From Candidatus Woesearchaeota archaeon (GTDB lineage Archaea > Nanobdellota > Nanobdellia > Woesearchaeales > UBA583): a stretch of 64,000 bases of DNA. The DNA is taken from contig CP060218.1 in the NCBI GenBank assembly GCA_023898345.1, positions 1,087,926 to 1,151,925 of the forward strand, in the 5' to 3' direction. The position numbers were made by a program, and so were the translations under genes. The notes beneath the pieces were generated by a model. The model searched no databases, had not been told where the DNA came from, and saw nothing but the letters and a program-made list of their open reading frames with translations. Shown piece after piece: positions 8,349 through 59,786 of this stretch (position 1 is the first letter of the stretch; the number at the start of each line of letters is the position of its first letter).

Positions 8349-8440
8349 GTACTTCTTTTTGTCTCCTCTCTCTCGCTCTTGCTTTCCTCAAAAGATAAAA
8401 TCCCCTAAACTCGCCAAATGTGAGGCTTTCTTGTTTTCGA

Positions 8441-9445
8441 CTATTTGACTGCGTACAAAGAAATTTTTCCTTTTTGGCGTTTTTGCAGAGCTGTGATGAG
8501 TCTTCCAAAATACCTTTTTTCATAGCAAATCACAGCAACCTTATCTTTGGTCTTTTCCATTTCTTCAAGGGTCCTTTGTGCAACATATTCTGTTCTGTCT
8601 TCAATGACTTTGTCGAGATGGGAACGCAAGGTATAGTAAAAATCTTTTCTTGGTAGATGAAAAAAATGCTGAAATTCTTCTTTGATTTCGCGGCAAAGTT
8701 CTTCGTCAGCGTTTCCGTCCAGAAAATCAAGATAAAAGGCATAGAATTTTTCCAGATTGATGCGGTTGTGTGAAAAATTACGGAAGAGAATACTGCTTGA
8801 TTTTTTTGTGTTGAGAATGTTTGTGTTTTGTGTTTTTGTTTCTTTGTTTCTTTTTTCTAAACACTCTTCTTTTACTTTGGTACAATATTCAAGACCAAAT
8901 TCACGCACAAAGAGATCTTCTTCGTAGAAGAGCTGAAAGAGAGTGAGTTTAATATGCTCTGAGTAAGAGGACAGGTGTGTTATTCCAAGGAGATTAAGAT
9001 TTTTGAACTGCGAGAGAAAATGGGCAAGTTTTGATTGATTTGTAAAGGAACGTGTATAATTTTCACCTCTTTCGTTGTCCATGCCAACAAAATGAATGTG
9101 ACAATCAAGAAGTAGAATTCTGAGTTGGTGCTTTATCTTTTTGAACTCTCCTGCTTTTAGAGGAAGTAAGATTATTGTTGGAGCGCCAAGTTCGTGTTGC
9201 TGTCTGGAAGGATGGTACTTTGGACTTGGCTGTAGGCTTGAAAGAGAAGAGAGTGTTGCAAAGAGTTTTTGCGTAGGATATGAAAAGGAAACCTTATTTC
9301 TGGTATGAGAAATCCTAACACTTTTTTGCGGAACTGCTTGGTGAAGGTGAACTGAAACAAAATGGATGAACTCTCGTAGCATCTTCATATGGAATTTTGG
9401 GAATTCTTTTAAATGTTTCTTCTTTGAGGTTATTGTGCACCGCAA
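8441..9445 (-). CDS. Hypothetical protein; possible metal-dependent hydrolase (LLLDCHIHFVG motif); start uncertain
   Basis: 334-aa ORF. The HxH-type motif is reminiscent of amidohydrolase/PHP folds but sits ~110 aa from the annotated N-terminus. Confidence 0.4.
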   Translation of the reverse strand: MRCTITSKKKHLKEFPKFHMKMLREFIHFVSVHLHQAVPQKSVRISHTRNKVSFSYPTQKLFATLSSLSSLQPSPKYHPSRQQHELGAPTIILLPLKAGEFKKIKHQLRILLLDCHIHFVGMDNERGENYTRSFTNQSKLAHFLSQFKNLNLLGITHLSSYSEHIKLTLFQLFYEEDLFVREFGLEYCTKVKEECLEKRNKETKTQNTNILNTKKSSSILFRNFSHNRINLEKFYAFYLDFLDGNADEELCREIKEEFQHFFHLPRKDFYYTLRSHLDKVIEDRTEYVAQRTLEEMEKTKDKVAVICYEKRYFGRLITALQKRQKGKISLYAVK

Positions 9446-9498
9446 AAGTACTTTCTAGGAGACCTGTCTAAAATTACTTTTTTGTGACAAAATACCTT

Positions 9499-9618
9499 AA
9501 GTAAAGAAATCGCTGAAATCTGCCTATCCCAATCGCAACAGAGCTGATGGGCATAATACCCAGCCAAGGAATCAAAAATTTGTTAGATGGAATTATTTTT
9601 GATGTGCAGCATATAAGA
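9499..9618 (+). repeat. REP-A short form plus 3' module (ggaattatttttgatgtgcagcatata), running directly into the Ham1 start codon
   Basis: gtaaagaaatcgctgaaatctgcctatcccaatcgcaacagagctgatgggcataatacccagccaaggaatcaaaaatttgttagatggaattatttttgatgtgcagcatataagaATG. Confidence 0.8.
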
Positions 9619-10179
9619 ATGAAAAAAACTCTGACTCTTGTAACAGGAAATGAAAATAAAAGAAGAGAATTTGAAATGCTTCTTTACAATTTCCAAGTTG
9701 AGATGAAAGCTTTGGATCTTGAAGAAGTACAAAGTTTAGACACTGAGTACATCGCCAAAGAAAAAGCAAAAAAAGCATATTCTCTTTTGCAAAAACCTGT
9801 CATTGTAGAAGATGTCAGTGCTCATCTTGATGCTCTAGAGGGCTTGCCTGGACCTTTTATCAAGTATTTTGAGAAAAAACTTGGCGATACTGCTCTTTTG
9901 AGACTTCTTGGCGAGGAGAAAAACCGGGCGGCTTTTATTCGTTGTACTTGTGTTTATTTTGATGGGGAATCACTGCTTGTTTCAGTTGCTGAAATGAAAG
10001 GACACATAAGTAGAGAAAAGAGAGGTGAAGATGGTTGGGGCTTTGATGTCTGTTTTATTCCTGAGGGACAGGAGAAAACTTTAGCGGAAATGGGCAGAGA
10101 AGAAAAAATTAACATTTTTCCGAGGTCTTTAGCACTACACCATCTTTCTGACCGATTAAAAAAGGAAGGTAAAAATTGA
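9619..10179 (+). CDS. Non-canonical purine NTP pyrophosphatase (Ham1/RdgB/ITPase family)
   Basis: Motifs LTLVTGNENKRREFE, VEDVSAHLDALEGLPGPFIKYF and GWGFDVCFIPEG. The true start is the internal ATG at 9619; the ORF-track 5' extension from 9547 is made of repeat-element sequence. Confidence 0.88.
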   Translation: MKKTLTLVTGNENKRREFEMLLYNFQVEMKALDLEEVQSLDTEYIAKEKAKKAYSLLQKPVIVEDVSAHLDALEGLPGPFIKYFEKKLGDTALLRLLGEEKNRAAFIRCTCVYFDGESLLVSVAEMKGHISREKRGEDGWGFDVCFIPEGQEKTLAEMGREEKINIFPRSLALHHLSDRLKKEGKN

Positions 10180-11583: not shown

Positions 11584-11873
11584 GTTTGAGACTCGTTCTT
11601 ATTTTACTTTTTTTCTTTTGTAGTCTTTGTAAGGTGAATAAAATGGCTCTCGAAGCTTATTTTAGGGATTGCCAGCACCCTTTTGCATCAAACTTCTCTT
11701 TCTGTTTTTGCTCAAATCTCAGAGACAGCTTTTTTTCTCTTCTTTAGTCAGCGCTTTTGCGATTTTTTTATAGGGCTACGAAAAACCAATATCATTTGTG
11801 AGATGAAAGCAAGGAGTCCTCACTCAAATTTGAGAGTTTTACCGACCTTATCTCTGAGAAGAACAAAAACCAA

Positions 11874-11955
11874 GTAAAGAAATCGCTAAAATGTGCCTAT
11901 CCCAATCGGAGCAGAGCTGCAGGGTATATATAATATCCAGCTAAGGAATCAAAAG
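11874..11955 (+). repeat. REP-A short form
   Basis: gtaaagaaatcgctaaaatgtgcctatcccaatcggagcagagctgcagggtatatataatatccagctaaggaatcaaaag. Confidence 0.85.
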
Positions 11956-15008: not shown

Positions 15009-15085
15009 GTAAAGAAATCGCCAAAATGTGCCTATCCCAAACGGAGCAGAGCTGCGGGGTATAATACTCAGCTAAGGAACTGAAA
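15009..15085 (+). repeat. REP-A short form
   Basis: gtaaagaaatcgccaaaatgtgcctatcccaaacggagcagagctgcggggtataatactcagctaaggaactgaaaa. Confidence 0.85.
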
Positions 15086-22397: not shown

Positions 22398-25136
22398 CTA
22401 CTCATAACTAATGCCTTCTTCAAAAAGCTGGAAAACTTCGTCGCCGTTCAAGCTTGTATTCCACACACTGATTTCATCGAGAAGGCAATTCACTTCGTAG
22501 CTGGCTGTGGGGTGGCGGCCAAAGTAAAGCGAAGCTTCGGGGAGTGTATTTTCAGCGCCACTTTTGCTCCCGATAAAAGTGCCGTTAAGGTAGTATTGCA
22601 AACCGGAACTTGTGCTGACGAAGGTGACATGGTGCCAGGTGTTCAATGAGAGTTGGCCAAAGGCATCGTATTCGTATGTCCCGTTTCCAAGCAGCGCATC
22701 TATTGTTCTGTCGCCGGGCCAGTTCAAAACTGTTCCTTGGCCGAGGTATCCGACGTCGGAGTTTGTCACTAAGTATTTGTTGCCGCTGCCGCTGCGAAAG
22801 TTCACCCAAAAGGAAAGTGTTTTGATTGTTCCATTGATGGGAAGATCTAGATAGCTTGTGCCTGATGTTCCGGGGAGGTCAAAGGAGGAGCCGTCAATGC
22901 CCCAACTGTTATAGGTCACGGAGCTGCCTTTGCTGCCGTCATGGTGATAGGAGGAATTGTCGAGTACGGAATTTTCGCCTTTCCAATGACCGAGTAAACT
23001 TGCATTTGCTGGAAGGCCGGAGTTACTTGGTGGTGAGGTTGGTGTGTCAAAGTTTTCCATGCTTGCTGCATAGAGTTGGTAGATGCTGCTTTGGTTAAGG
23101 GAAACACCCCACACACTGATTTCATCGAGAAGGCAATTCACTTCGTAGCTGGGTGTTGGGTGTCTTCCAAGGTAAAGGGAGGCTTCGCTAAGGGAATTGA
23201 TGGCTCCGACTGTTAGGCCTTTGTACGCGCCGTTGAGATAGTACTCTTGGCCTGAGCCTGTGCTGACGAAGGTGACGTAGTACCAGGTGTTCAAAGAGAG
23301 GGTTCCGAAATCATTGAAGGCATATACTCCGTTTCCGAGAAGGGAGTCTATTGTTCTGTCGCCGGGCCAGTTCACAACGGTTCCTTGGCCGAGGTATCCG
23401 ACGTCGGAGTTTGTTACGAGGTATTTGTTGCCGGTGCCGCTGCGAAAGTTCACCCAAAAGGAAAGTGTTTTGATTGTTCCATTGATGGGAAGATCTAGAT
23501 AACTTGTACCTGATGTTCCGGGGAGGTCAAAGGCTGTTCCGAAGGGGCCGGAGGTGGTGTACGTCACGGCTGATCCGAGTGTGGCGCTTTTGTTGTTTGC
23601 TGAACTGTCGAGGGAAGTATTTTCGCCTTTCCAGTATCCGATTAAACCGTAGCTGTTGTTAAAGGGGGAAACTGGGGCAAGTTCTTCTTCGCTTACAAGG
23701 CTGTACTTTTGCGGACAGTCCAAAGCGTTACAGTCGCTTGCACTCACAACAACGAGCCACTGCCCGGACTCGATTTCGCTTGTATTCACGTACACTTGCT
23801 CGACGTTGTTGAGGTGATCGCTTTCGTTACGCCAAGCTTCTCGTGCGGGTGTGTTCGGGTCGAGTGTCCAGGGATAGAATGTTTGTCCGGATGGCGATAG
23901 GAGTTTGAGGTCAAGGTCGTTGATGAGGTTGGCTCCGGGAACGTCGTCCCAAGCTAGCGTTACTTTGAGTGAGCTTTGTGCGCTGATGTTGATTGCGTAC
24001 ACGTCCACGTCAGAGATGTCTGAAATGTTTGCTTCTAGGAATGTTCCGTTGATGATTCGGTCCACAGCTCCTTTGGCGTTGAGTAGTCCGTACCCGTTCA
24101 CGTAGTCGGGGCCGTCGATGATTTCACTCCCGTTGCCGCTACGGTGTAGGTCTGTCGTCGAATCTAGCAAAAGGGCTTTGATTGTCGATGGGAGCGGGTC
24201 TTCGTCGTAGCCGGACTTGTTCCACCGTTCGAGCATAAGCGCGATGGTTCCACTGACGTGTGGCGCTGACATGGAGGTTCCGCTAACAGTTGCATAATTA
24301 TTTGTTCCATTTGTAGTTGTGATTCCATTTCCAGGTGCAACTAAATCAGGTTTTATTCTTCCACCATTTGTTGGACCAAGTCCCGATGTAAAGCTAATAA
24401 CACCACTGTCGTAAACATTACCTACGGAAATGGTGTTTTTTGCAACTGCTTCTGGAGCAATAGTAAAATACCCCGTTGTTAGATTACAGTTTTGAGAATT
24501 ACCAACAGCCCAAACTATTGGAACTTTTCTAGTTGTATAATTTCCATAAACCAATTCATCTATTAATTGAGTAAAAGAATTATATTCTCCCAATACTTCA
24601 CATTGCTTATGTCCATAGGAATTTGAAATTACATTAATACTGTAATTATCAATTCCAGTTTTATAGTTAGATTCTAAGTCATAACTATATCCAAAAGGTA
24701 ATAAATCTTCTTGGTACCCATAAATTTTTGCTTCAGGAGCTACCCCAACATAACTTGAATTTAGATTTCCGTCCCCTATCATTATACCTGCAACCCTAGT
24801 TGCATGGTCTGATGTAGAAGGAGCCAAATTTAAGATTTGTAGTCTAGTTGCAAAATCTGTATGGTTACTCGCAACTTCTCTTTCATATTGTAAAATATTT
24901 ATATTGCTCCCCTGTAAATCATAAGGGTTTTCATAAAGAATAGGAATTTTACTAACATTTTTAGAACTATCTAAAAAATTTTTGCTATTCTGTAATTCAA
25001 CATCAATAAATAATATTTCGTCTGTATTGGATAAGATGAATAATGTTTCTTCATATGTGAGAGAATTTGAAAATGCATTAACTGAAAGTAATAATATCAT
25101 CAGTAATAAAAATTGACTATTTTTAAAATAACTCAT
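22398..25136 (-). CDS. Secreted S8 subtilisin-like serine protease with two C-terminal LamG/concanavalin-like lectin domains
   Basis: Signal peptide, catalytic His (HATRVAGIM) and Ser (GTSMSAPHVSGTIALM) motifs, then two ~190-aa tandem repeats (YLDLPINGTIKTLSFWVNFRSG...CLLDEISVW). The start overlaps the upstream gene by 4 nt. Confidence 0.9.
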   Translation of the reverse strand: MSYFKNSQFLLLMILLLSVNAFSNSLTYEETLFILSNTDEILFIDVELQNSKNFLDSSKNVSKIPILYENPYDLQGSNINILQYEREVASNHTDFATRLQILNLAPSTSDHATRVAGIMIGDGNLNSSYVGVAPEAKIYGYQEDLLPFGYSYDLESNYKTGIDNYSINVISNSYGHKQCEVLGEYNSFTQLIDELVYGNYTTRKVPIVWAVGNSQNCNLTTGYFTIAPEAVAKNTISVGNVYDSGVISFTSGLGPTNGGRIKPDLVAPGNGITTTNGTNNYATVSGTSMSAPHVSGTIALMLERWNKSGYDEDPLPSTIKALLLDSTTDLHRSGNGSEIIDGPDYVNGYGLLNAKGAVDRIINGTFLEANISDISDVDVYAINISAQSSLKVTLAWDDVPGANLINDLDLKLLSPSGQTFYPWTLDPNTPAREAWRNESDHLNNVEQVYVNTSEIESGQWLVVVSASDCNALDCPQKYSLVSEEELAPVSPFNNSYGLIGYWKGENTSLDSSANNKSATLGSAVTYTTSGPFGTAFDLPGTSGTSYLDLPINGTIKTLSFWVNFRSGTGNKYLVTNSDVGYLGQGTVVNWPGDRTIDSLLGNGVYAFNDFGTLSLNTWYYVTFVSTGSGQEYYLNGAYKGLTVGAINSLSEASLYLGRHPTPSYEVNCLLDEISVWGVSLNQSSIYQLYAASMENFDTPTSPPSNSGLPANASLLGHWKGENSVLDNSSYHHDGSKGSSVTYNSWGIDGSSFDLPGTSGTSYLDLPINGTIKTLSFWVNFRSGSGNKYLVTNSDVGYLGQGTVLNWPGDRTIDALLGNGTYEYDAFGQLSLNTWHHVTFVSTSSGLQYYLNGTFIGSKSGAENTLPEASLYFGRHPTASYEVNCLLDEISVWNTSLNGDEVFQLFEEGISYE

Positions 25137-26959: not shown

Positions 26960-27074
26960 TTTTTTGAATATTCTTTTTGAATTTTTTTTCTTTATATGAT
27001 TTGTCTTGAAAATTTTCACCTTTTTTTGTTTTTTCAAAGCGTAGTTTTTTCTGTATGAAATATCTCTACAATTC

Positions 27075-27262
27075 GCTCCCATTCACGTACACTTGCTCGA
27101 CGTTGTTGAGGTGATCGCTTTCGTTACGCCAAGCTTCTCGTGCGGGTGTGTTCGGGTCGAGTGTCCAGGGATAGAATGTTTGTCCGGAGGGTGAGAGGAG
27201 TTTGAGATCTAAGTCGTTGATGAGGTTGGCTCCGGGAACGTCGTCCCAAGCTAGCGTTACTA
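27075..27262 (-). pseudogene. ~190-bp internal fragment of the subtilase gene (copy of ~23774..23960, about 93-95% identity)
   Basis: Encodes LAWDDVPGANLINDLDLKLLSPSGQTFYPWTLDPNTPAREAWRNESDHLNNVEQVYVN, identical to subtilase residues ~390-450. No start and no catalytic residues. Confidence 0.8.
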
Positions 27263-27924: not shown

Positions 27925-28125
27925 TGCTCCCATTCACGTACACTTGCTCGACGTTGTTGAGGTGATCGCTTTCGTTACGCCAAGCTTCTCGTGCGGGTGT
28001 GTTCGGGTCGAGTGTCCAGGGATAAAATGTTTGTCCTGTGGGCGAGAGAAGTTTGAGGTCAAGGTCGTTGATGAGGTTGGCTCCGGGAACGTCATCCCAA
28101 GCTAGTGTTACTTTGAGCGAGCTTT
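27925..28125 (-). pseudogene. Second ~200-bp internal fragment of the subtilase gene (copy of ~23774..23985)
   Basis: Same boundaries at the 5' side as fragment 27075..27262 (both begin ...ctcccattcacgtacacttgctcgacg). Lies upstream of Cys2. Confidence 0.8.
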
Positions 28126-28479
28126 GTTTTTTCTTTGATTTTGAGGAAGCATTTTATGGGAAAAGAGAATCTGATATTGGGTATTTGCACTATAGATTAG
28201 AATTCTCAGAGGAGGACTTGAAATATGTCGTCTTATTTACAGACTATGACTTATGGAAAATCTTGAATTATGCTGTCCTTGTCGGAATTCGAAAAGTTGC
28301 AAATTCACCTGAAGATGAATTGAGGAAAAGAATTGAGAAATTGGGAAGAATGTATGAAAATTTAGAAAAGTTGACAAAGCTAAGAAAAAATACTCAGACC
28401 TGAACTTCTTCTTTTTCTTTGTGCTCTTCAAGTTTCAAACAACAATTCATTTAAAGCAAAAAAAACTTCTTTCTTTGTC

Positions 28480-37778: not shown

Positions 37779-37824
37779 TAGATTATTGGTTAAAAAAATA
37801 TCTTATAAAATTATCTTTTTTGAA

Positions 37825-37894
37825 TTCCTTAGCTTGGTATATACCCCGTAGCTCTACTCATATCAGGATAGGCACAATTTAGCGATTTCTTTAC
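37825..37894 (-). repeat. REP-A short form (inverted orientation), ~47 nt upstream of the pilin-like gene start
   Basis: The reverse complement reads gtaaagaaatcgctaaattgtgcctatcctgatatgagtagagctacggggtatataccaagctaaggaa. Confidence 0.8.
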
Positions 37895-38157
37895 TTTCTT
37901 TCTTAAAAAAACTCAGGATTCCCTAAGCTTACCAAAGGATATGTCGGAACCAAAACCGCTGCCAGCATAAAGAATATCACCATTTGAATCAATATCTATC
38001 CCACCTACCCCCGAAGAATTTGTTAGAAAAACAGTCTTATTCCAAATTTGATTTCCATATACATCGTATTTAAAAATCGTCCCTAGCCAATTAACCGCTC
38101 CACCAATATACAAGTAATTATTATGGTATTTAACTCTAAAAAAGGTTGAATTCATTG

Positions 38158-39110
38158 GTGTGCTAAGACATAATTGATGAACGCTTAAAGTTTTGGATGT
38201 ATCTTTCAGCTGGAACTTTATAGTAAATCCCTTGATGAATTCGTTTCTCGTTATAAAAGGCAATGAATTCATCGAGAGTATTAAACCTTTCGTCGAATTC
38301 TAATTTGTAGGTTCCAAACCATCTTTCTACCTTCCCATTTGTTTGTGGGTGATTCACCCTGCCCAGAATGTGCTTAATGCTATTCTGGTTACAAAATCGA
38401 GTAAAATTATGTTTTGGATCACCTCGATTCTGAGTATTTGTGAAATGAGTTCCATTGTCTGTAAGTATCTCTTTGGGCTTGCCAGATTTGGCAATCGCAT
38501 TCTGGAATGCCAGAATAGTGTTTTCGGTTGTTGCATTTTCGAAGTATTCTGCATGAATAAGAAAACGAGAATAATCATCTAGAAACGCAATGATCTGTTT
38601 ACCTGTAAATGGGCATTGTGACCAGTCTGTGTGCCATAATTCGTCTTTAGAGCTACGCTCATATCTGACGAACTTTATTTGCTCAGGACGAGTTCTCTTG
38701 TTTAATTGGAGACTGTTCTTTTTCAGAACTTTCTGTATTTGGCGTTCGGAAACTCCAAACCCTTCTTCATCAAGAAGAAGCTTGATTCTTTGTGACCCCA
38801 TTTTGTATTGCTTCCAGATTTTGACAACTAAGTCTTGGAAGCTTTGATTTATTTCTTTTTCTTTTGGACCTCGTTTCTGAGGCTCAACAAAAGTCGCACC
38901 ACGTCTCTTGTATGCTTCAAACCAAGAGCTAAGAGTAGATTTTGGAACTTCTCTGGTCTTTGAGAGATAAGAAAGAGAATACCAACCTCCTTCAAGAGTT
39001 TTCACACAACGAAGTTTGAACGTTTGATTGTATGTTTTTTGTTTCATTTCTCAAAATAACGAGAAATTCATCAAAAAAGGAGGCGTTCAATAATTATGTC
39101 TTAGCACACT
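38158..39110 (-). mobile_element. IS481-family insertion sequence (~953 bp) with 24-bp terminal inverted repeats
   Basis: Left end tgtgctaagacataattgatgaac matches the reverse complement of the right end gttcaataattatgtcttagcaca (1 mismatch). Flanking near-duplicate ttgaattc(a/g)ttgg (putative target-site duplication). Single DDE transposase ORF inside. Confidence 0.85.
38163..39047 (-). CDS. DDE transposase, integrase-core (rve) domain, IS481 family
   Basis: N-terminal HTH, then catalytic D (HTDWS), D (LTDNG) and E (TNGKVER) with typical spacing. The ORF ends 5 nt from the IS terminus. Confidence 0.85.
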   Translation of the reverse strand: MKQKTYNQTFKLRCVKTLEGGWYSLSYLSKTREVPKSTLSSWFEAYKRRGATFVEPQKRGPKEKEINQSFQDLVVKIWKQYKMGSQRIKLLLDEEGFGVSERQIQKVLKKNSLQLNKRTRPEQIKFVRYERSSKDELWHTDWSQCPFTGKQIIAFLDDYSRFLIHAEYFENATTENTILAFQNAIAKSGKPKEILTDNGTHFTNTQNRGDPKHNFTRFCNQNSIKHILGRVNHPQTNGKVERWFGTYKLEFDERFNTLDEFIAFYNEKRIHQGIYYKVPAERYIQNFKRSSIMS

Positions 39111-40406
39111 TGAATTCGTTGGCAGACTTATATTAAATATCTGATTTCCATCAGGATCAAACTTCATAAGAAGCCCTACGGTCTCAGTAAATGTGGGATT
39201 AAGTGAGTAGGCCACAGCGTAAACATTTTCTTGATTATCTAATGTAACATCCCATGCACAGTCATAATAATCTAAGAAGAAGAGCTTTGCACTATAATTC
39301 CACACCTCAGAACCTGTGGAATTGAATTTTACTACAAAGCTCCGATTCCCTAAATTATCTTTGTGACCTACAGCATAAATCTCTTCTTGTGAATTCACTT
39401 TAAGACCCCAAAGTAAAGCGTTCTTAGTGGCCTCAGTATAATTTTTTTCCCAAATAAGGTTCCCCAATAAATCATACTTTGCCAAAAAGATTCCCCCACT
39501 ACCACCAAGGTAGCCTCCCACGTATACAAAGTCATTTCTGACGTCTATTGCAGTCCCATAAGTATTTACCCCCTGATAATTGAAGTATGGTCCTGATCTT
39601 GACCCCGAAGTATTGTATCTTGCCCACGCAAGTTTGAAAACGCCTGCGTCAAATAATATTCCTACAACATAGGCATCATCATTATACACTTTTATCCCTT
39701 CTGTCCCTTCATAATAAACTCCATTTGAAATTAGATCATTCCACTCATAACTTCCATTTGATAAAAATTTCACGGCATCCCAATCCTGATTATTTGAAGC
39801 TGATCTTGGTCTTGATGCCATGTACACGTCATCATTGGAGTCAACTGCAAGACCTAATACATCGTCGCTGTACGTTCCCTGATCATAAGTATTTACCCAT
39901 ACTTGAGAGGGCATTTTCACATGAACAGCATTCAAATCTATAAAGTATTCCTTTGAAAGTATGTTCTTTTCAGTAATCATGCTAATTTCTATTTTCTCCT
40001 TATTTACTCTCTTAATGCAGGAACTGATGTCCATATTAGTGACTCCCAAATCTAATTCCGTAGAAGGCACGCAAGGTTGACCATTTATCAAAAGTTCTTT
40101 CATACTCTCATTTGTAGTTCCCTTATTGGTGATGTACAGCTCTGCCCCGACTAAATTCTCAATGTCAAGGTTGTTTGTCGATGCTGTTTTTGTCTCAAGG
40201 TCAGAGTGAATCCCTGTAGATAGGGAAGTGAACCATATTTTAAAGCCCACAACTGCTGCGATGGTGGCAACCAATAAAAGGGCAGTTCCGATTATAGGAG
40301 AAATAGCTTTCTTTTTCTTCATCTGAGTCTTTGGGAATATTTTTTATTTACATATTCTTTTAATTACTTGCCAAGGACATCTTTCCCACCTGTGAGTCTG
40401 CTCACA

Positions 40407-40643
40407 TTATTCGCTTTTTGTTTTTAGGGAAAATGCATGTAGGTACGTTCCTTCATCAATGTGTTCCATAAGAAGATTTTTGACTATTCGATGTTGCTCA
40501 AGGAGTTTTTTTCCTTTAAATCCGTCCCAAGTGACTACTGCATCAAAATGTGCATCGTCTCCAGAGGGATTGAGGATTTGAGCTTTTGCTCCGGGAAGCT
40601 TTGTCTCTATGAGATTTTTTATGTCTTGTGCTGTTCGTACCAT
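40407..40643 (-). CDS. bolA: BolA-family protein
   Basis: 78 aa; GDDAHFDAVVTWDGFKGKKLLEQHRIVKNLLMEHIDEGTYLHAFSLKTKSE matches the BolA signature (H-F...F.G...RHR.V...L...IHA.S..T.TP.E). Confidence 0.85.
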   Translation of the reverse strand: MVRTAQDIKNLIETKLPGAKAQILNPSGDDAHFDAVVTWDGFKGKKLLEQHRIVKNLLMEHIDEGTYLHAFSLKTKSE

Positions 40644-40781
40644 AGCTTTTTCCTTGACCTTTTGATTAAAAATTTTTTGCTTCCTCGGTTTAACATTTCT
40701 TTTTTTTACTTTCTGTAACTTAGCACGTTACACACCAAATGAATCGTATTCTTTATAAATATCCCTATTTCTTTTGCTTAT

Positions 40782-41832: not shown

Positions 41833-41975
41833 GTAGAGAAATCGCTAAGATTTTCCTATCTCAATCAGAGCAGAACTCAGGACATTACTGCAATTTTCAA
41901 GACACGAGTTCTAACTCTCAGCGAGATGGTCGCACAGTGCTGCGGAACATAATGGCCAGCTAGGGAATTAAAAAT
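41833..41975 (+). repeat. REP-A long form (divergent)
   Basis: gtagagaaatcgctaagattttcctatctcaatcagagcagaactcaggacattactgcaattttcaagacacgagttctaactctcagcgagatggtcgcacagtgctgcggaacataatggccagctagggaa. Confidence 0.75.
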
Positions 41976-43140: not shown

Positions 43141-44589
43141 TTACCTTTGTGCGTACTTGAGGACAAGATAAGGATAAATCCCTCCAACGTCCATGTACCC
43201 TGCGACATAGATATTGCCTGAGCTGTCAAGTTCTATTCCTGTCATCCATTCATCATTTCCACTATCATAGGTTACATTCCAAATTTCATTTCCATTTGTA
43301 TCATATTTCACAAGTAGAGTGATAGCAGTAGTTGAGGCCCCAACGACATATACATTCCCCAAATTATCAATTACAATCTCATTTCCCCATTCACCATTTC
43401 CTGAGTCATAAGTTACATTCCAAATTTCATTTCCGCTAGAGTCATATTTGAATGTTATGAAGTCATCATTTGCTCCATTATTTGTCCCTCCCGTTATATA
43501 CACATTTCCTAAGCTATCAACAGTAACTCTGTTTCCCCATTCACTATTTCCTGAGTCATAAGTTACATTCCAAATCTCGTTTCCGCTAGAGTCATATTTG
43601 AATGTTATGGCGTCATAATTTGCTCCATTATTTGTCCCCCCCGTTATATACACATTTCCTAAGCTATCAACAGTAACTCCATTCCCATACTCATCACTTC
43701 CACCGTCATACGTCACATTCCAAATCTCGTTTCCGCTAGAGTCATATTTGAATGTTATGAAGTCATCATTTGCTCCATTACTTGAATATCCACTTACGTA
43801 GATATCTCCCTTTGGACTAAGTGCAATTGAGGAGGTATCATCATAATTTCCTCCATCATACGTCACATTCCAAATCTCGTTTCCGCTAGAGTCATATTTG
43901 AATGTTATGAAGTCATCATTTGCTCCATTATTTGAATATCCACTTACGTAGATATCTCCCTTTGGACTAAGTGCAATTGAGGAGATATCATCATAATTTC
44001 CTCCATCATACGTCACATTCCAGAGTTGCTCCATGTTGTTATCATATTTAGCTACGAGAAAATCAGAGTCTCCATTATCAATCCCTCCCGCTAAGTATAT
44101 ATTTCCTTCTGAATCAAGTGCTAGATCATAAAACCAAACATTATTGCTCAGATCTGGCGATTTGTTCCACAACAGTACGGGCATAAGTTCGTGGCTTTGG
44201 TATTGTTCTTTTACAAAGAACTTCTTGCTATAAATTCCTTTATCTGTAAATACTGCTACTTCAACAGAGTTGCCACTTGCATTAAGACAAGAACCCAAAT
44301 CAAATATGTGTAACCCTGAAAAAATACCTGTTGAAAACTCGCAGTCAGTTCCTGAGGCTTTCACATTAGAGACTGCTGTTCCTGTTCCTGCTTGAAAAAA
44401 GAGCTCGTCGCCAACGAGATCGACAATCCCCACACTTTGGCCGCTTGCTGTGTCGGACTCGGCTTTTGCGAAAAGAGCAGATCGAAAGGAATCAAACCAG
44501 CTACTGAAAAAAATGACTGCGACAACAGCAACGACAAGAAGTAGGGCAACGGCAATGACGGGAGAAATAGCTTTTTTTGGCGAGCGCAT
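43141..44589 (-). CDS. Pilin-like adhesin: class III signal peptide plus about 8 SBBP beta-propeller repeats
   Basis: MRSPKKAISPVIAVALLLVVAVVAVIFF, then ~41-aa repeats (YDSSGNEIWNVTYDGGN.DD.SSIALSPKGDIYVSGYS.NGANDDFITFK). Four units are near-identical at the nucleotide level. Confidence 0.75.
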   Translation of the reverse strand: MRSPKKAISPVIAVALLLVVAVVAVIFFSSWFDSFRSALFAKAESDTASGQSVGIVDLVGDELFFQAGTGTAVSNVKASGTDCEFSTGIFSGLHIFDLGSCLNASGNSVEVAVFTDKGIYSKKFFVKEQYQSHELMPVLLWNKSPDLSNNVWFYDLALDSEGNIYLAGGIDNGDSDFLVAKYDNNMEQLWNVTYDGGNYDDISSIALSPKGDIYVSGYSNNGANDDFITFKYDSSGNEIWNVTYDGGNYDDTSSIALSPKGDIYVSGYSSNGANDDFITFKYDSSGNEIWNVTYDGGSDEYGNGVTVDSLGNVYITGGTNNGANYDAITFKYDSSGNEIWNVTYDSGNSEWGNRVTVDSLGNVYITGGTNNGANDDFITFKYDSSGNEIWNVTYDSGNGEWGNEIVIDNLGNVYVVGASTTAITLLVKYDTNGNEIWNVTYDSGNDEWMTGIELDSSGNIYVAGYMDVGGIYPYLVLKYAQR

Positions 44590-44745
44590 GTTTGGAATGA
44601 AGAGAAACACTATTTATACTTTTGTTTGGAGCTTGAAGAAGTGAAGCTCTTTTTTTCTTGAAACGAACGGTTCTGTCCATAATTTTATTTTGAAACATTT
44701 TAAGATAACTATTTTTAGTCAAAAATAAATCTCTTGTTAGCAAAA

Positions 44746-44890
44746 ATAAAGAAATCGCTAAAATGTGCCTATCCCAATCGGAGCAGAGCTCCGGGGCATT
44801 ATGGCAATTTTCAAGACGCGATTTCTTTACTCCCAGTTGGGTGGTCGCAGCAGAGCTGCGGGGTATAAATACCCAGCTAAGGAATTAACT
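44746..44890 (+). repeat. REP-A long form (reference copy): 5' module, internal perfect hairpin ccggagcagagctccgg, inverted copy of the 5' module, then tail
   Basis: ataaagaaatcgctaaaatgtgcctatcccaatcggagcagagctccggggcattatggcaattttcaagacgcgatttctttactcccagttgggtggtcgcagcagagctgcggggtataaatacccagctaaggaa. gtaaagaaatcgc and gcgatttctttac form a 13-bp inverted repeat. Confidence 0.85.
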
Positions 44891-44969
44891 TTTAAAATTG
44901 ATTTTGAATTTATGGACAGAGCCAAACGAACGGTATTTTTATAAATTCTTTTCCTGTTGTGTTGTTACC

Positions 44970-45713: not shown

Positions 45714-45901
45714 TCTCGCCTCTGGCATTTTCAAAAATATTTTCTTTTTTAGTTTTAAGTAAATGGTGTTCTCGAAGTAAAAAACTTCTGCGACTATACA
45801 TAAAATTTAGAGATTTTTACTTCGTTACAAGATCTTGTGCATTCTAAAAGTAATTTCTGGGAGACCTGTTTAAAATTACTTTTTCGTAACAAAATGCCTT
45901 A

Positions 45902-46086
45902 GTAAAGAAATCGCTAAAATGTGCCTATCCCAATCGGAGTAGAGCTCCGGAGCATTACGACAATTTTCAGGACACGAGTTCTAACTTCCAACTTGTGGTG
46001 GTCGTAGCAAAGCTGCGGAGTATAATACCCAGCTAAGGAATCAAAAATTTGTTTGCTGGAATTATTTTTGATGTGCTGTATATCAA
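45902..46086 (+). repeat. REP-A long form plus 3' module
   Basis: gtaaagaaatcgctaaaatgtgcctatcccaatcggagtagagctccggagcattacgacaattttcaggacacgagttctaacttccaacttgtggtggtcgtagcaaagctgcggagtataatacccagctaaggaatcaaaaatttgtttgctggaattatttttgatgtgctgtatatc. Confidence 0.85.
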
Positions 46087-46180
46087 GAAAACACTACCTG
46101 TCCCTCCCTCTGTTAACATCTCTTTGACAATGAAGAGAAACCTATTCTCTGAAGAAAAAAATATATTCTTCTTTTCACTA

Positions 46181-49100
46181 CTAAAACTCATTGACATTGC
46201 GTCGCTTGTACAGATAAACTACGATAAGTCCAATGCCTACTACAACCAAAATTAAAAAGAGAACTGTCCATGTCGCTGGAGTAAATATCTGCCCAAAATA
46301 CTTTTGTTTCTCTCTTTCATCAGTTTCTGCTTGTTCTTCTGCTGCAACTTGCGCTGCGGCAAGTTCTTGCACCTCACTCACAACAACACTGTCGACAGGA
46401 CGCAAAGAGTAGTAATAGTTCCCATCACTCTCTTCCACAAACTCAGACAAATATTCCTTGCCACTAAGCTCATCATAAACAACAAAACTTTCATCACTGA
46501 GTTTTTCATCAACATAATACAACTCAGTATACGTTCCTGAAAGCTGAGTCTGATATCGCTTGCTACTGACAATTTGCAAGTCTAATTTTTTTGCATTTAA
46601 TTTACGATTACTGTCCTCATCGCCAGAAACAGTACACGCCCGAGTTTGAGTTTCAACATCAACACAAGCAGCACTGTCAGTGACAAGGCGACTTTGTTCT
46701 CCATTTACACAAACACTCCACTGACCATACTCAAAAGAAGAAACACAACTCTCAGTTCCAGTTTCATTACCCAAAATCTCAGCAAGTTCTACAAGGTCAG
46801 AACTCTTCTTCTTCTTGGAGTTACTACTACCTCCACCGCCGCCGCCAGAAGAACTACTACTACCACCAGAAGTACTGGAAGAACTCACCTCAACAATCGT
46901 GTACTCACTCCAGCTTGTAACCGTAAAGCTAAGACTCGTCCCATTTGCAACAATCTCACTACAAACAGACGAAGGACAATCAACACCGTCGCGCTGCACT
47001 TTGTACTTACTGTAACTAATATTATGCAAAGTGAGACGAGCAGAAACATTAAACTCAGGAAGAAGGAAAGAGTCAAGACTAGCATGACCAGCACCAACAG
47101 AAATTTTGTCTCGAAGATCAAGTGTTCTCTCAATCTTCAAAGGAGAAAGAAAAGCAATCTCACCATATTGGTTTGAAAAGATTGCATCGCCCACAGAAAG
47201 AAGTTCACTAGAGTTCAAAGCACTAAAGTTTGTCGTACGACTCATGTTCCAAGTGCTAGCATTAAAAATAACTTCAACAGTGCCAGGCTCATCAAAAGAG
47301 TCAGTTGTAAACACAAGATCATAACCGGAACCCAAACTATTTCCAGCAAGATCAGTTCCTAAGGCGGACAAATGGAAATGGTACGTAGTCTCGTACTCAA
47401 GATCGACAGCAGGAGAAAGTTTCAAACTTCGCGATGCGTTGTCGTAGCTCGAACTAAAAGCAACACCCTCATCATTTGTCACAGATAAAGTTCCAACAGA
47501 CATTGCCTCACTAAAGGTAAAGTAGATGTCTGAACTAATCGAAACGTTGCTTGAACCGTTGAGAGGAGAAGTACTAATGAGCTGAGGAGAAACAGTATCA
47601 ACATATGCTGTACGAAAACTTCCGACGACAAAACCTTTGTTCCCGGACTGGTCAAGAGAACTAAGTTTGTAGTAATAGAGAGTATCTGAATCGAGAGCTG
47701 TTACACTGACGCTGTGCGAATCACTAAGACTACTTGAAAGACTCGTATTTTTTCCATACGAACTACTTAAACCATATTCAAGATAACTTTGAGAAGGTTC
47801 ATCTGTCCACCAACTCACAGTTGCATTTGTACTGCCAACTGCCACTTGGACGTCATACAGAACTGGTGCGGTAACGTCAGAACTGGTAACTACAAGTTCA
47901 CTTGGGGAATCAGTTCCGGAACTGATACTGCTACTCACATTCTCAGAGAGAACGGCGACAAAATAATACTCGGGATTACCTGCTGTACAAATTCCAAAGA
48001 GATTACCGTCGCATTCCCATTCTGAAATCCAAGAAGCAAGTGCTTGATTGCCCGAGAATTGCGTACTCAGTGTCATAACAGTTGTATCAAGTAGGTCATC
48101 TTCGTAAATCGTAATGGTAAGGGATTTTCCGTCACAGTTCGTTCCGCTGACAATTGCTTCAACTTCTTCTCCATCTTGAGCAAGAAGGGAAGACCAAGAG
48201 GCAGAACTTAAATGACAGGAGGGAACGCTTCCAACGGAAAAGGAGATTTGGTAGTCATCGGGATTGCGATTACCAGAACTGTCGGAACACTTCACATAGT
48301 ACGAGTAACTTTGGCCGTCACTGAGGCCGGAAACCAAGGTGCTGTGTGAGAAAGCGCCTGTGCTAGAAAAGGGAATCATTGTGCTATAACTTGTTCCGGA
48401 AACGGGGGAATACCGACAGGTAGCAGCTTCATTGCTTGTCACTTGTAATGTGATTTGACTTGTTCCTGCTGCAAGTTGCCCGCTTGGAGAGCCGCCACTT
48501 AGGAGGGCTGGACTCACATCAGGAGTTAAAATGTCGAGGTAAAAAGACATGGGGCCTTGGTTTCCTGCAGCATCGTATGCTTGAACGGAGTAGCTGTAAA
48601 AGGATTGTTCGGTGACGGTGGAATCCACATACACGGGGTTAGTGCTTATGCCAATTTGGCTAGTCGGTGTACATTCTTGACCGCTGCAACGGTAAATGCG
48701 ATAAGAGCTTACTCCGACGTTGTCGCTGGCAGCGGACCAGGACAGAGTAACTGAACTTCCAGTAAGGGAGGTGTTCGTAAGCCCCATAACTTGGGACGGA
48801 GGGGTTGTGTCAACTTCTGTCTGGGAAGCTTCTGTCGTAATCCCCACAATAGAAGAATACGAGCCATTATTGCCACTAGCATCAATTGCGCGAACACGAT
48901 ACCTGTAACTGATGCTTGCCGCCACAGTAGTGTCTTCAAATGAAAGGCTGCCTGTATTTCCTATTAACACAAAATTAGAACAACCACTACCAGTACAACG
49001 TTCAATTTCATAGTTCACAACTCCAACATTATCACTAGCTGCCAACCATGTCAAACCGACATTACTAGAAGTCACTTCACTTGCAACTAAACCACTTACT

Positions 49101-51454
49101 TGAGAAGGGGCCTGTGTGTCTTCACTGTTATTACTTTGACTTTCATTATCATCACTAACCACTACAATTTCAGCAAGCCATAAAACACTTGCATACTTTA
49201 CATTTCCTTCTCCTGCAGCCTGATACAAACGCAAGATCTTTGTCGATGGCATGGCACTTACATTAATTATGCTGCTTGGAACATCATTCGAACCCCCAAT
49301 AGTTGTAAACGTTTGAAACGCACTGCCATCAAAATATTGAATCTGCAATGTCTCAGGCTGCATGTAATAATTTCCATTATTATCACCCCAGTATATAGTA
49401 AGACTACTAAGATTCATACTTGTATTAAACTCAAGTTCAACCCAATTTGGGTTACTAATGTTCTGTGCAGAAGCCCATTCTGTTTGAATATCTCCATCAA
49501 TAAGATGAGACAAATCATAGGCATTATCATTGTAGGTACTGTCAACACGAACAGTAAGTGAAATATTGTTATCCACCACACTAATATTCTCCTCTCCTCC
49601 ACTTTGTTCAGCTAGGGTAGAAACTGAAAGGGTAGTAGAATTTGCAGTATTGCTTGCTCCGTCGTAAGCCTGAACATAATAACTGTAAGTAGTATTGGCA
49701 TTCAAACCTGTGCCATTATAGTTTGTCCCCGTGATAGTTCCGACTAAGCTTCCATCACGAAATACCCTATAACCAATAACTCCAACATTATCAGTTGAAG
49801 CAGACCATGAAAGAGAAATAGAATCCACTGTTTGAGAAGGACTATTCAGATTAGCTGGAGCCGTTGGAGATTCGGAATCATTAGAAACGCCTCCCCCACT
49901 AGAGTTCAAATTTATCTCAGCTCCTTTCTTCCCATAGTATTGAGTATACGTTCCAGCCAATCTACCTTGACTGTCCACTGCTTGAGTACTACTTAATAAA
50001 AGAAGGTTAGGTTCATGAATTGAAGTAGAGATATCCTCATCCCAACTATTAAGGCTTTGCGTATTATATGCTGTTATAACATTACCATCAGTCATATAAT
50101 CTTCATTGCCTCTAAAACGCAGAATGGTCGCACCACCTCCTGCAAATGTATTTCTATAAAAATAATTATTTGTAGTCGTTCCTACATTTTCCATAGAAGC
50201 AAGAAAAATCCCCGCGGTATCATCAGTCTTTATAGTATTGTAAGAAACTTCATTGTAGCCAGAATAATCAGCAATCGTATTTCCAATAGCAATCTGATAT
50301 CCTATAGTATTACTAAAAAAATTATCCCTGATGGTCACATATCTTCCCGTATATTTCATCCATAATCCATACCCGGTCTCACTATTCTCTCCTCTGTTTC
50401 CCTCAACTATTACATAATCGGTATCATAGAGATCTACATAATGTCCATTCCCTCCGTTCCTGTTACTAATATTTGTCAAAAGATTATCACTGTATAATAT
50501 ATTCTGCTTGTAAGCAGTAGTCTTACTTAAAAAAACGGTTCCTGTATTGTCGTTACCCGCAGTACCTGGACCCAGATTTGTAAAATGATTTCTCCACCAT
50601 GAAGCTCTATTGGAAACACCTGTCACCCAAAAATAATGTGCATTCGCCACATCCTGTCTTCCATTAGTAAACGTTAGATCAGCAACAAATATGTCATCCA
50701 TATTGCTTTGAACCATAATTTTCGCCTTCGAAGCATCTATGACTGCAGTTTCCCCCGGATAACCAATCAAAGTTCTTGTTTTAGAATCTTCTTCTAGACG
50801 AACGTTATAATTATTAGCTGAACTTCCTATTAATTCATACTCTCCACCTCTAAACACAATGATCTTATCATGATAAGTATTATCAGAAGCATCTCCTTTG
50901 TACCAATCTGAAATATCTTCTAGTGGCTGAGTAATTGTCCCCACCTTTGTTCCTGAATAACCGTCCTCAATAAAAACAAATTTAGAAGCATCAACCGTTA
51001 CAGACCAATTAACGTCAATTATATTATATTCTTGATCTGTAACTCGTACTACAAAAGTGTAGGTTCCAGAACTAGGAGGGTTCCAGCTGACTACCCCATA
51101 TTCCTCAGTTCTTGGAATTGTTCCAATTGAAGCACCACTTGGGCCAGAGAGAATCTCATAACTAAAAGGCCAAGACCCTCCTTGAATACCTATTGGAATT
51201 TCATAGGGCATATCAGGATGGGCAAATTTATGCCTTGCATGAATAGAAGTTTCATCATCCGGTCTTGGATACACAACATGCATTGGTATCTTTGCAGGAA
51301 TAAACTCTCCCGAACTTAATTTCCACAAACTTTCGTCAACAGCAGCAAAAGAAGTGCTGCTCAAAAAAGCTATGAATAGCAACAACCAAGAACATAGATG
51401 TAACAATTTTTTTCTTGACTTTAAGGAATTTCCTAGTGTGAAATTATACCCCAT
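46181..51454 (-). CDS. Giant cell-surface protein (about 1757 aa): signal peptide, parallel beta-helix, FN3 domains, discoidin (F5/8 type C)-like domain, Ig-like domains, Gly/Ser linker and C-terminal TM anchor
   Basis: Signal LLHLCSWLLLFIAFLSSTSFA. Beta-helix repeats (NNYFYRNTFAGGGATILRF). FN3-like SPSQTVDSISLSWSASTDNVGVIGYRVFRDG and TWLAASDNVGVVNYEIERC...YRYRVRAIDASGN. GS linker SSSSTSGGSSSSSGGGGGGSSNSKKKK. Anchor VLFLILVVVGIGLIVVYLYKRRN. Start taken at ATG 51454 (MGYNF...). Confidence 0.8.
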   Translation of the reverse strand: MGYNFTLGNSLKSRKKLLHLCSWLLLFIAFLSSTSFAAVDESLWKLSSGEFIPAKIPMHVVYPRPDDETSIHARHKFAHPDMPYEIPIGIQGGSWPFSYEILSGPSGASIGTIPRTEEYGVVSWNPPSSGTYTFVVRVTDQEYNIIDVNWSVTVDASKFVFIEDGYSGTKVGTITQPLEDISDWYKGDASDNTYHDKIIVFRGGEYELIGSSANNYNVRLEEDSKTRTLIGYPGETAVIDASKAKIMVQSNMDDIFVADLTFTNGRQDVANAHYFWVTGVSNRASWWRNHFTNLGPGTAGNDNTGTVFLSKTTAYKQNILYSDNLLTNISNRNGGNGHYVDLYDTDYVIVEGNRGENSETGYGLWMKYTGRYVTIRDNFFSNTIGYQIAIGNTIADYSGYNEVSYNTIKTDDTAGIFLASMENVGTTTNNYFYRNTFAGGGATILRFRGNEDYMTDGNVITAYNTQSLNSWDEDISTSIHEPNLLLLSSTQAVDSQGRLAGTYTQYYGKKGAEINLNSSGGGVSNDSESPTAPANLNSPSQTVDSISLSWSASTDNVGVIGYRVFRDGSLVGTITGTNYNGTGLNANTTYSYYVQAYDGASNTANSTTLSVSTLAEQSGGEENISVVDNNISLTVRVDSTYNDNAYDLSHLIDGDIQTEWASAQNISNPNWVELEFNTSMNLSSLTIYWGDNNGNYYMQPETLQIQYFDGSAFQTFTTIGGSNDVPSSIINVSAMPSTKILRLYQAAGEGNVKYASVLWLAEIVVVSDDNESQSNNSEDTQAPSQVSGLVASEVTSSNVGLTWLAASDNVGVVNYEIERCTGSGCSNFVLIGNTGSLSFEDTTVAASISYRYRVRAIDASGNNGSYSSIVGITTEASQTEVDTTPPSQVMGLTNTSLTGSSVTLSWSAASDNVGVSSYRIYRCSGQECTPTSQIGISTNPVYVDSTVTEQSFYSYSVQAYDAAGNQGPMSFYLDILTPDVSPALLSGGSPSGQLAAGTSQITLQVTSNEAATCRYSPVSGTSYSTMIPFSSTGAFSHSTLVSGLSDGQSYSYYVKCSDSSGNRNPDDYQISFSVGSVPSCHLSSASWSSLLAQDGEEVEAIVSGTNCDGKSLTITIYEDDLLDTTVMTLSTQFSGNQALASWISEWECDGNLFGICTAGNPEYYFVAVLSENVSSSISSGTDSPSELVVTSSDVTAPVLYDVQVAVGSTNATVSWWTDEPSQSYLEYGLSSSYGKNTSLSSSLSDSHSVSVTALDSDTLYYYKLSSLDQSGNKGFVVGSFRTAYVDTVSPQLISTSPLNGSSNVSISSDIYFTFSEAMSVGTLSVTNDEGVAFSSSYDNASRSLKLSPAVDLEYETTYHFHLSALGTDLAGNSLGSGYDLVFTTDSFDEPGTVEVIFNASTWNMSRTTNFSALNSSELLSVGDAIFSNQYGEIAFLSPLKIERTLDLRDKISVGAGHASLDSFLLPEFNVSARLTLHNISYSKYKVQRDGVDCPSSVCSEIVANGTSLSFTVTSWSEYTIVEVSSSSTSGGSSSSSGGGGGGSSNSKKKKSSDLVELAEILGNETGTESCVSSFEYGQWSVCVNGEQSRLVTDSAACVDVETQTRACTVSGDEDSNRKLNAKKLDLQIVSSKRYQTQLSGTYTELYYVDEKLSDESFVVYDELSGKEYLSEFVEESDGNYYYSLRPVDSVVVSEVQELAAAQVAAEEQAETDEREKQKYFGQIFTPATWTVLFLILVVVGIGLIVVYLYKRRNVNEF

Positions 51455-51547
51455 GGGTTTTTTATTAAAAAGCACTATATAAATTCTTTTCACTCGAAAA
51501 TTGACCAATTTGGTGAAACCTAGCACTCGATTGCACAAAACAAAGAG

Positions 51548-51574
51548 TCAGAATTATTTTTGATGTGCGGTATA
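51548..51574 (+). repeat. Isolated REP-A 3' module (cagaattatttttgatgtgcggtataa) upstream of the 51615 gene
   Basis: Matches the 3' extension seen at 9590..9615 and 46058..46086. A TATA-like acatatatataaag follows at 51581..51594. Confidence 0.6.
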
Positions 51575-54002: not shown

Positions 54003-54169
54003 AGGTATTAAGTCGAAAAGGAGATCTTGAAATTAGCTATGTTGTTAAATTGCTTTTAGCAATTATTGCACTTATTGTTCTTATCGTTGTTATTACGATT
54101 GTTATTAAAGGAGAATTCGATAATCAAGGTGGCATTATTGAAAACATTTTTTCTTCTATTGGGAAGTAA
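53999..54169 (+). CDS. Candidate 56-aa membrane microprotein overlapping the alaX stop (ATGA)
   Basis: Manual translation MKVLSRKGDLEISYVVKLLLAIIALIVLIVVITIVIKGEFDNQGGIIENIFSSIGK. Below the 60-aa ORF-track cutoff. Coordinates ±1. Confidence 0.4.
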   Translation: MKVLSRKGDLEISYVVKLLLAIIALIVLIVVITIVIKGEFDNQGGIIENIFSSIGK

Positions 54170-54240
54170 TTCCTTAGCTGGGTATTATACCCCGGAGCTC
54201 TGCTCCGATTGGGATAGGCACATTTTAGCGATTTCTTTAC
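54170..54240 (-). repeat. REP-A short form, inverted orientation
   Basis: ttccttagctgggtattataccccggagctctgctccgattgggataggcacattttagcgatttctttac is the reverse complement of the consensus. Confidence 0.85.
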
Positions 54241-54358
54241 TTTTTTTATAGTCGTCCACAAAACCCATTCCTTTTGTCTCCTCTCCACACCTCCTGTTCG
54301 TTTGCTTTATAGTGTTCTCAAAGTTAAAAACTTCTGCGGAGCACTATAGATTTCTCTT

Positions 54359-54739: not shown

Positions 54740-54744
54740 CAAAA

Positions 54745-54763
54745 AGTAAAGAAATCGCTAAAA
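54745..54763 (+). repeat. REP-A 5' module fragment (gtaaagaaatcgctaaaag)
   Basis: 19-nt match to the conserved 5' end of the family. Confidence 0.5.
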
Positions 54764-55474: not shown

Positions 55475-55659
55475 GTTTTGTTTTTGAAGACTTTTTTTTA
55501 TAAGCTTATCTTCTTACCTTAAGCTTTCTCTTGGTGTGCTAAGACGTATTTATTGAACATCTCTCTTTTTGTCTCCTCTGCACTCACTCAGTTCGTTTGC
55601 TATAGATGAAAGATATTGAGAATGAAGGAAAACTCTCAAGGGACATAAGAAAAGTAGAC

Positions 55660-59599: not shown

Positions 59600-59786
59600 T
59601 TTCTTCCTATATCTTAATAATTTTTGGAAGCTTTGTTTTTAATGACTTTGTAAAAACTTGGAAGTAATAAGAAGAACGAAAATAGTGCTCCACAGAAGTT
59701 TTTACCTTCGAGAACACTATCTAGCAAACAAACGGGGTGAGTAGAGAGGAGACAAAAAGAAGTACTTTTGTGAATGAGCATATATT

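Follow-up and report, generated by a model that had tools for sequence, protein, structure and literature searches.

Small palindromic repeats that fall into size classes through internal deletion are already known from bacteria. Correia elements of Neisseria end in 26-bp inverted repeats and duplicate a TA target, and the ERIC (IRU) element of enterobacteria is a single 127-bp palindrome. REP sequences have a core of 20-40 nt that occurs in inverted pairs, and the doublets known as REPINs reportedly decay to singlets. In archaea, the PATEs of the IS200/IS605 type (for example in Haloquadratum) have similar hairpins in the same orientation near both ends and have neither terminal inverted repeats nor target duplications. 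BOX of Streptococcus pneumoniae and BIME of E. coli, which are bacterial, are modular repeats with a variable number of B modules that cluster with other small repeats; BOX varies by tandem boxB copies. Dense MITE-like elements have been described in one Woesearchaeal genome, which is among the archaea richest in them at ~105 per Mb (PMC11602168).

Here we describe REP-A, a repeat family in a 64-kb window, by which we mean the whole stretch of DNA that was analyzed. Like Correia and ERIC/IRU elements, REP-A is a small, non-coding, palindromic intergenic repeat that is dispersed, can form long hairpins, and occurs in discrete size classes one internal segment apart. Unlike them, it has ends that are not inverted repeats, no duplication that could be seen, two hairpin domains, and a DPANN host. 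As in REP/REPIN systems with a RAYT, a hairpin-forming doublet seems to be the full unit, non-folding singles are commoner, and the copies are intergenic; however, the hairpin cores of REP-A are direct repeats with a 66-67 nt offset, its inverted pair is formed by other modules (A/A*, see below), and none of the 30 scanned window proteins matches a Y1 transposase. REP-A shares with the PATEs the arrangement of hairpins and the character of the ends, but its target tetranucleotide is not conserved, its sequence resembles no known insertion-sequence end, and no partner TnpA or TnpB was found among the window proteins scanned. The organization into modules A, B, and C with a variable number of B recalls BOX and BIME, as does clustering with other small repeats, because a second family, REP-B, adjoins two of the nine window copies and a third in one other strain. 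There is no sequence relationship to BOX or BIME, and the variation in REP-A is a switch between two hairpins and one, unlike that of BOX. REP-A is small, non-coding, multicopy, and intergenic, as MITEs are; terminal inverted repeats and a target-site duplication, which also define MITEs, were not found.

The REP-A family in the window

The window has a G+C content of 37% and encodes RadA with an HhH domain; it is chromosomal DNA of a DPANN archaeon (Woesearchaeota) with a genome of at least 0.84 Mb. Its Band_7 protein is identical to an NCBI entry named 'Candidatus Woesearchaeota archaeon', and the closest homologues carry Nanoarchaeota/Woesearchaeota labels. Blastn, profile searches, and multiple alignment identified nine copies of REP-A and one 23-nt fragment (Table 1; copies are referred to by the coordinate of one end). 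Three copies are of the long form, which measures 134-140 nt (~139), and six are of the short form, which measures ~66-76 nt (~72). All nine are non-coding and intergenic, and the density in the 64-kb window is ~140 per Mb. The 12-mer TAAAGAAATCGC from module A occurs 13 times at one mismatch or fewer, compared with 0.64 expected, and the hairpin motif seven times, compared with 0.10 expected. Profile searches without filters found no further degenerate copies in the window. The copies are 78-96% identical to each other, and thus differ by 4-22%. All three long copies are on the + strand, and seven of the nine copies are on one strand.

When the sequence was read directly and aligned, the two size forms that the initial annotation had reported were found at the loci it had named. 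One of its boundaries needs correction: there is a long copy at 45902..46086, but it ends at 46041, and positions 46042-46086 are flanking sequence in common with the 9502 locus. Two further long copies, in contigs L004 and L005 (see below), brought the sample to 11 copies and the alignment of long copies to five (44746, 45902, 41833, L004, and L005).

Table 1 REP-A copies and their parts in the window
Feature	Position	Strand	Remarks
Long REP-A	44746-44885	+	Best preserved in window; A 44746-44778; B1 44779-44793
Long REP-A 44746, right half			A* 44803-44830; C* 44832-44842; B2 44846-44860; C 44861-44885
Direct repeat 1	44778-44796	+	TCGGAGCAGAGCTCCGGGG; holds hairpin B1
Direct repeat 2	44845-44863	+	TCGCAGCAGAGCTGCGGGG; holds hairpin B2
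Long REP-A	45902-46041	+	Older; 89% identical to 44746
Long REP-A	41833-41968	+	Most decayed; 78-82% identical to other long copies
Short REP-A	8282-8348	+	3' module damaged; followed by REP-B fragment 8347-8374
Short REP-A	9501-9572	+	B2-type hairpin remnant; within larger repeat 9433-9619 in common with long copy 45902
Short REP-A	11874-11949	+	Chimeric hairpin: B1 left arm, B2 right arm, G.G mismatch
Short REP-A	15009-15080	+	Chimeric junction of the 11874 type
Short REP-A	37824-37894	-	Decayed; in spacer downstream of a gene that an unrelated insertion sequence has split
Short REP-A	54169-54240	-	Equals L004 long copy minus 66 nt between direct repeats
Solo module A fragment	54741-54763	+	23 nt; perfect inverted copy of 54223-54245

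Structure of the long form

Alignment of the five long copies gave the module order A (33 nt), B1, a short linker, A*, C*, B2, and C (25 nt). A* is an imperfect inverted copy of A of ~28 nt, and C* (CCCAGCTGGGT) is complementary to part of C. The long form therefore consists of two adjacent hairpin domains, or imperfect palindromes, A-B1-A* and C*-B2-C, of which B1 (CGGAGCagaGCTCCG) and B2 (CGCAGCagaGCTGCG) are the near-identical 6-bp caps; the short form is A-B-C. B1 of the 44746 copy is the perfect 6-bp hairpin recognized earlier at that locus; in this 140-nt copy it occupies nt 34-48, and B2 occupies nt 101-115. The two hairpins differ at two positions that pair with each other (G-C versus C-G), and both are perfect. 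Four of the five long copies have a B1 of the G..C type and a B2 of the C..G type; the left arm of B2 is damaged in the 41833 copy.

The initial annotation had described 13-bp terminal inverted repeats. An inverted repeat is indeed present in the 44746 copy, between TAAAGAAATCGC (44747-44758) in A and GCGATTTCTTTA (44818-44829) in A*, but it is perfect over 12 bp instead of 13, since a thirteenth pair would require G at position 44746 and the base there is A, and none of the other four long copies has a perfect repeat. The right arm reads GCGATTTCTAAC in L004, GCGACTTCTAAC in L005, and ACGAGTTCTAAC in both the 45902 copy (positions 45974-45985) and the 41833 copy, the two in which the initial annotation had remarked degraded pairing. 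The A/A* repeat is also internal and not terminal: in both forms the true ends of the element are those of A and C, GTAAAGAAATCGC... and ...CCAGCTAAGGAAT, which show no complementarity. No variation was seen in the 5' module (AGAAATCGC) among the 11 copies or in the solo fragment.

The minimum-energy fold of the 44746 copy contains both hairpin domains (-54.2 kcal/mol; z -4.3 on the + strand and -5.3 on the - strand). In this fold A/A* is capped by B1, and C*/C, capped by B2, forms a second domain alongside it. All of the well-preserved long copies (44746, L004, and L005) gave the two-domain fold on either strand, with z from -3.0 to -5.9. The folds of the 45902 copy (z -1.3) and the 41833 copy (z -0.6) were no better than those of shuffled sequences, and the short copies had no significant fold (z +0.9 to -0.9). 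Compensatory base-pair changes were absent among the five long copies, with 91.7% of cells paired compared with 91.5% in column shuffles. The loss of the fold in older copies and the absence of compensatory change follow the pattern of neutral decay, not of a selected RNA.

Relationship of the two forms

The two forms differ by a segment that lies between direct repeats holding the hairpins. That direct repeats bound this segment had been noticed before; they are longer than was then claimed, extending over 19 nt in the 44746 copy with 17 of 19 positions identical. The offset between them, which equals the deleted segment, differs by one nucleotide between L004 (66 nt) and the 44746 copy (67 nt). 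When the 66-nt inter-repeat segment of L004 was deleted in silico, the product showed no differences over 72 nt from the short copy at 54169-54240, and the earlier statement that the short form equals the long form minus the inter-repeat segment is exact for this pair.

The bases at the two positions that distinguish B1 from B2 fell into at least three junction types among the short copies. G..C in the 54240 copy corresponds to a crossover after both positions, G..G in the 11874 and 15009 copies to a crossover between them that left a mismatched chimeric hairpin, and C..G in the 9501 copy to a crossover before both. The 37894 and 8282 copies have G..A and G..T, respectively. Given the G..C, G..G (twice), and C..G junctions, conversion from long to short needs no extra mutation, whereas the reverse direction needs several; this argument uses two diagnostic positions, one of which shows all four bases among the short copies, and point mutation could mimic crossovers at them.

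Sequences flanking the elements were also informative. Regions 9433-9619 and 45835-46089 are 88-91% identical on either side of the element, and ~50 nt upstream of the 11874 copy match the sequence upstream of the 41833 copy (79% over a stretch including the start of the element). Because the flanks of these two short/long pairs, at 79-91% identity, are about as diverged as the elements themselves, a larger segment would have been duplicated first and the form would then have changed in place. Alternatively, the shared flanks could be separate repeat modules that attract insertions. We conclude that the short form was probably derived from the long form by deletion between the direct repeats, and that this probably occurred several times. 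Recombination between the direct repeats had been proposed to interconvert the forms; the long-to-short half of that proposal stands, and the reverse direction is without support.

Comparison between strains

The window is collinear with contigs of GCA_020637525.1 (L032, L035, L040, and L011) at 99.7-99.9% identity, and it overlaps GCA_002505525.1 at 98.5% (L025) and GCA_020430405.1 at 99.35% (L012). Other loci were fetched by ten exact-protein look-ups, which covered three GCA assemblies and many Logan/ENA contigs. The search for filled and empty sites at orthologous loci, which the initial annotation had recommended, revealed no empty/filled or long/short difference between strains at any covered REP-A locus. 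At least six other contigs or samples carry the long locus 41833 without a single change. The 44746, 45902, and 37894 elements have the same form in GCA_020637525.1, as do 54240 in L011, 9501, 11874, and 15009 in L040, and 15009 in L041. The 8282, 9501, and 11874 elements are identical in GCA_002505525.1, although the overall difference is 1.5%.

The signatures that had been taken to indicate an active or recently active element are not borne out by these data. At none of the nine loci does the form differ in any other covering assembly or sample (98.5-100% identity), the divergence among REP-A copies is far above that among strains, and the older long copies have lost their fold. REP-A shows the pattern of an old burst followed by neutral decay, not that of ongoing mobility.

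One strain-level rearrangement was seen in this part of the chromosome. In L037 and L038, the BolA gene (99.2% identical to window 40098-40685) joins unrelated sequence at window position 40685, ~1.1 kb from the 41833 element; beyond this breakpoint, the L037 sequence includes a DDE_Tnp_1 transposase.

Distribution of REP-A

A degenerate pattern matching all nine window copies was searched against 185,579 GTDB species genomes and found only two contigs, L004 (JAGRAE010000291.1) and L005 (JAGRAE010000267.1), both from one MAG. They carry long forms that are 94-96% identical to the 44746 copy, have low coverage, and are filed under the 'Bdellovibrionales' MAG HKST-UBA10. One of them encodes an S8 peptidase that, over the 170 residues of its C-terminal half, is ~97% identical to the window peptidase; because of this match, the two contigs are almost certainly misbinned DNA from a close Woesearchaeal relative. 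The pattern had no match in JGI metagenomes or IMG/VR, and blastn found no match in plasmids or phages. REP-A is absent from L007-L010, which come from relatives with an 83-84% identical Band_7 protein and have tight intergenic spacers. These contigs have no synteny with the window at REP-A loci and therefore provide no empty-site test.

Other repeats and features of the window

The window contains a single insertion sequence, at 38159-39109 on the - strand (951 bp, encoding a 294-aa rve-type transposase and bounded by 38-bp imperfect terminal repeats, GTGTGCTAAGACATAATT). The gene into which it inserted is now in two pieces, 39087-40322 and 37913-38272. Identical copies with different flanks are present in two unrelated metagenome contigs, L033 and L034, and the insertion sequence therefore looks recently mobile.

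REP-B is an intergenic repeat of ~100 nt with its own hairpin, ...TATAGTGTTCTC...GGAGCACTATAG. It is found at 54246-54347, 55564-55604, and 8347-8374 (+), at 59682-59767 (-), and at ~2250-2440 of L040. Unlike REP-A, REP-B varies between strains. A copy lies upstream of the 11874 element in GCA_020637525.1, whereas a different sequence of ~190 nt occupies this place in the window (11645-11845) and in GCA_002505525.1. The identity between L040 and the window shifts from 98.6% to 100% exactly at this difference.

A 24-nt motif, GAATTATTTTTGATGTGCnGnAT, occurs in the same orientation at 9591-9614, 46059-46082, and 51551-51574. Two of its copies bracket a gene for a 1785-aa protein (46181-51538) that is absent between the Band_7 gene and the next gene in the relatives L008-L010, which suggests that this region is a 5.5-kb insertion bounded by direct repeats. 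The 44746 copy of REP-A is bracketed by AAACGAACGG-TTCTGTCCATAA on the left (44661-44682) and TTATGGACAGAG-CC-AAACGAACGG on the right (44910-44933), that is, by an inverted 12-mer and a direct 10-mer that resembles part of REP-B. These brackets may be operator or promoter pieces or repeat debris. Nearby, the gene for a beta-propeller (SBBP) protein (43141-44610) contains six tandem repeats of ~150 bp, 60-96% identical, at 43198-44049.

The gene for a 912-aa S8 peptidase (22398-25136) has an internal 648-bp duplication comprising two Laminin_G_3 units, and a piece of ~200 nt from this gene is repeated twice downstream (27072-27261 and 27932-28127; 95% identity) beside tRNA-Thr. A diversity-generating retroelement was considered for the repeats at 23.7-28.1 kb and rejected, because the mismatches are not adenine-specific and there is no reverse transcriptase.

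Discussion

The best explanation of these results, to which we assign a probability of roughly 0.6, is that REP-A is a lineage-restricted, non-coding dispersed repeat whose long form is full-length and whose short form is an in-place deletion relic. The full-length unit would be the ~139-nt long form, with its two palindromes and near-identical 6-bp GC hairpin caps, and it is this form that would have spread, most likely as a selfish element that is non-autonomous and depends on a putative enzyme for movement. The 19-nt direct repeats at the hairpin tips would then recombine, or replication would slip between them, with the loss of 66 nt that include A* and C*; this would destroy both long stems and leave the short A-B-C relic in place. 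Instability of the palindromes may drive these deletions, and the family is presumably quiescent now. Past mobility of REP-A is suggested by its dispersal. No transposase with REP-A-like ends was found in the window; its sole insertion sequence was rejected as a partner, because its terminal repeats are unrelated and it only interrupts a gene beside a short copy.

The long form might instead be derived from a single-strand transposon of the HUH/Y1 type, as a REPIN or an IS200/IS605 PATE would be, with B1 and B2 as its end hairpins and the short copies as dead singlets, or be the active unit of an undescribed HUH-type or otherwise hairpin-dependent DPANN mobile element; we consider both unlikely. 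In such an element the two hairpin tips would be recognition sites for the enzyme, and hairpin-stimulated deletion would produce the immobile 72-nt relics. The near-identical subterminal hairpins do lie in direct orientation, ~33 and 25 nt from the element ends, the true ends have no terminal inverted repeats and no target-site duplication, most copies (7 of 9) are on one strand, and the doublet-singlet relation resembles REPIN decay. However, the 7 versus 2 strand split is not significant, the inverted pair is A/A*, whereas in REPINs it is the hairpin cores, the scan of 30 window proteins revealed no Y1/HUH or TnpB gene, and there is no conserved 4-5-nt target 5' of the element, where the tetranucleotides vary (AAAA, CTTA, TAAA, TTAA, CCAA, ACCA, and others) and have only A at -1 in common. 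A hairpin-dependent HUH-type mechanism would be the most interesting possibility left. Less likely still is that the short form is ancestral and that the long form arose by a ~66-nt target-duplicating insertion, or by fold-back or template switching at B, and then spread. Short copies outnumber long ones six to three in the window, and the extra segment contains nothing but element-related modules (a second B and inverted versions of A and of part of C), as template switching could yield. On the other hand, the 19-nt arms of the supposed target duplication differ from each other by an identical paired swap in four of the five long copies, unlike a fresh duplication; every short copy has module A and is thus not an empty site; and the G..G (11874 and 15009) and C..G (9501) junctions would each require extra mutations. 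The particular version put forward in the initial annotation, a ~85-bp MITE-like unit bounded by terminal inverted repeats that duplicates its target, is not supported: the ends do not form inverted repeats, neither the window nor the fetched loci contain a free 66-nt or A..A* unit, and no target-site duplication was seen at the element ends. The longest strings common to the 14-nt flanks are A-runs at inconsistent offsets, with a mean of 4.1 nt compared with 3.4 nt for random pairs.

The least likely of the explanations considered is that REP-A is a cis-acting sequence or small structured RNA kept by selection, such as a transcript-end or insulator hairpin, a protein-binding site, or an sRNA gene. 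Several observations would fit a function: the invariant 5' module, the paired B1/B2 swap that leaves both hairpins perfect, several C-to-T changes in the hairpins after which G.U pairing would persist on the + strand, an A-run followed by a T-run behind most copies, and element sequences that are unchanged between strains differing by 1.5% overall. Against it, compensatory pairs are absent among the copies, one change in L005 is tolerated on the opposite strand only, and the commoner short form has no significant structure. A search of Rfam 15 families gave no REP-A match even at E up to 10; tRNA-Thr was the only match in the window, and the best element scores were 12-17 bits, compared with gathering thresholds of 36-60. 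Five of the 11 copies lie between divergent genes, where orientation is uninformative, and the four in tandem contexts are evenly divided between sense and antisense; the neighboring genes (ITPase, Na+/H+ exchanger, epimerase, slipin, beta-helix protein, and others) are functionally unrelated. REP-A is also entirely missing from the relatives with an 83-84% identical Band_7 protein. An element-borne or fixed-distance promoter was rejected, because TATA-like strings lie at inconsistent distances in comparison with the tRNA-Thr promoter, and so was a small protein, because indels in L004 and L005 disrupt the 42-codon frame that crosses the 44746 copy. A regulatory role or a strand-specific RNA is therefore unlikely, but the striking constancy of the first 12 nt of module A keeps it in consideration.

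REP-A as a dispersed repeat with deletion relics opens no new biological question. What it adds to the systems already known is a worked DPANN example with a two-hairpin full unit and a commoner short form that arises by deletion, apparently more than once. If the HUH-type explanation were true, REP-A would be a REPIN-like birth-and-death system in an ultra-small archaeal genome. The family matters for assembly, because short-read contigs break at REP-A (for example L006), and, as the misfiled L004 and L005 contigs illustrate, it could help binning as a marker of the lineage. Such repeats also mark likely recombination points in streamlined genomes.
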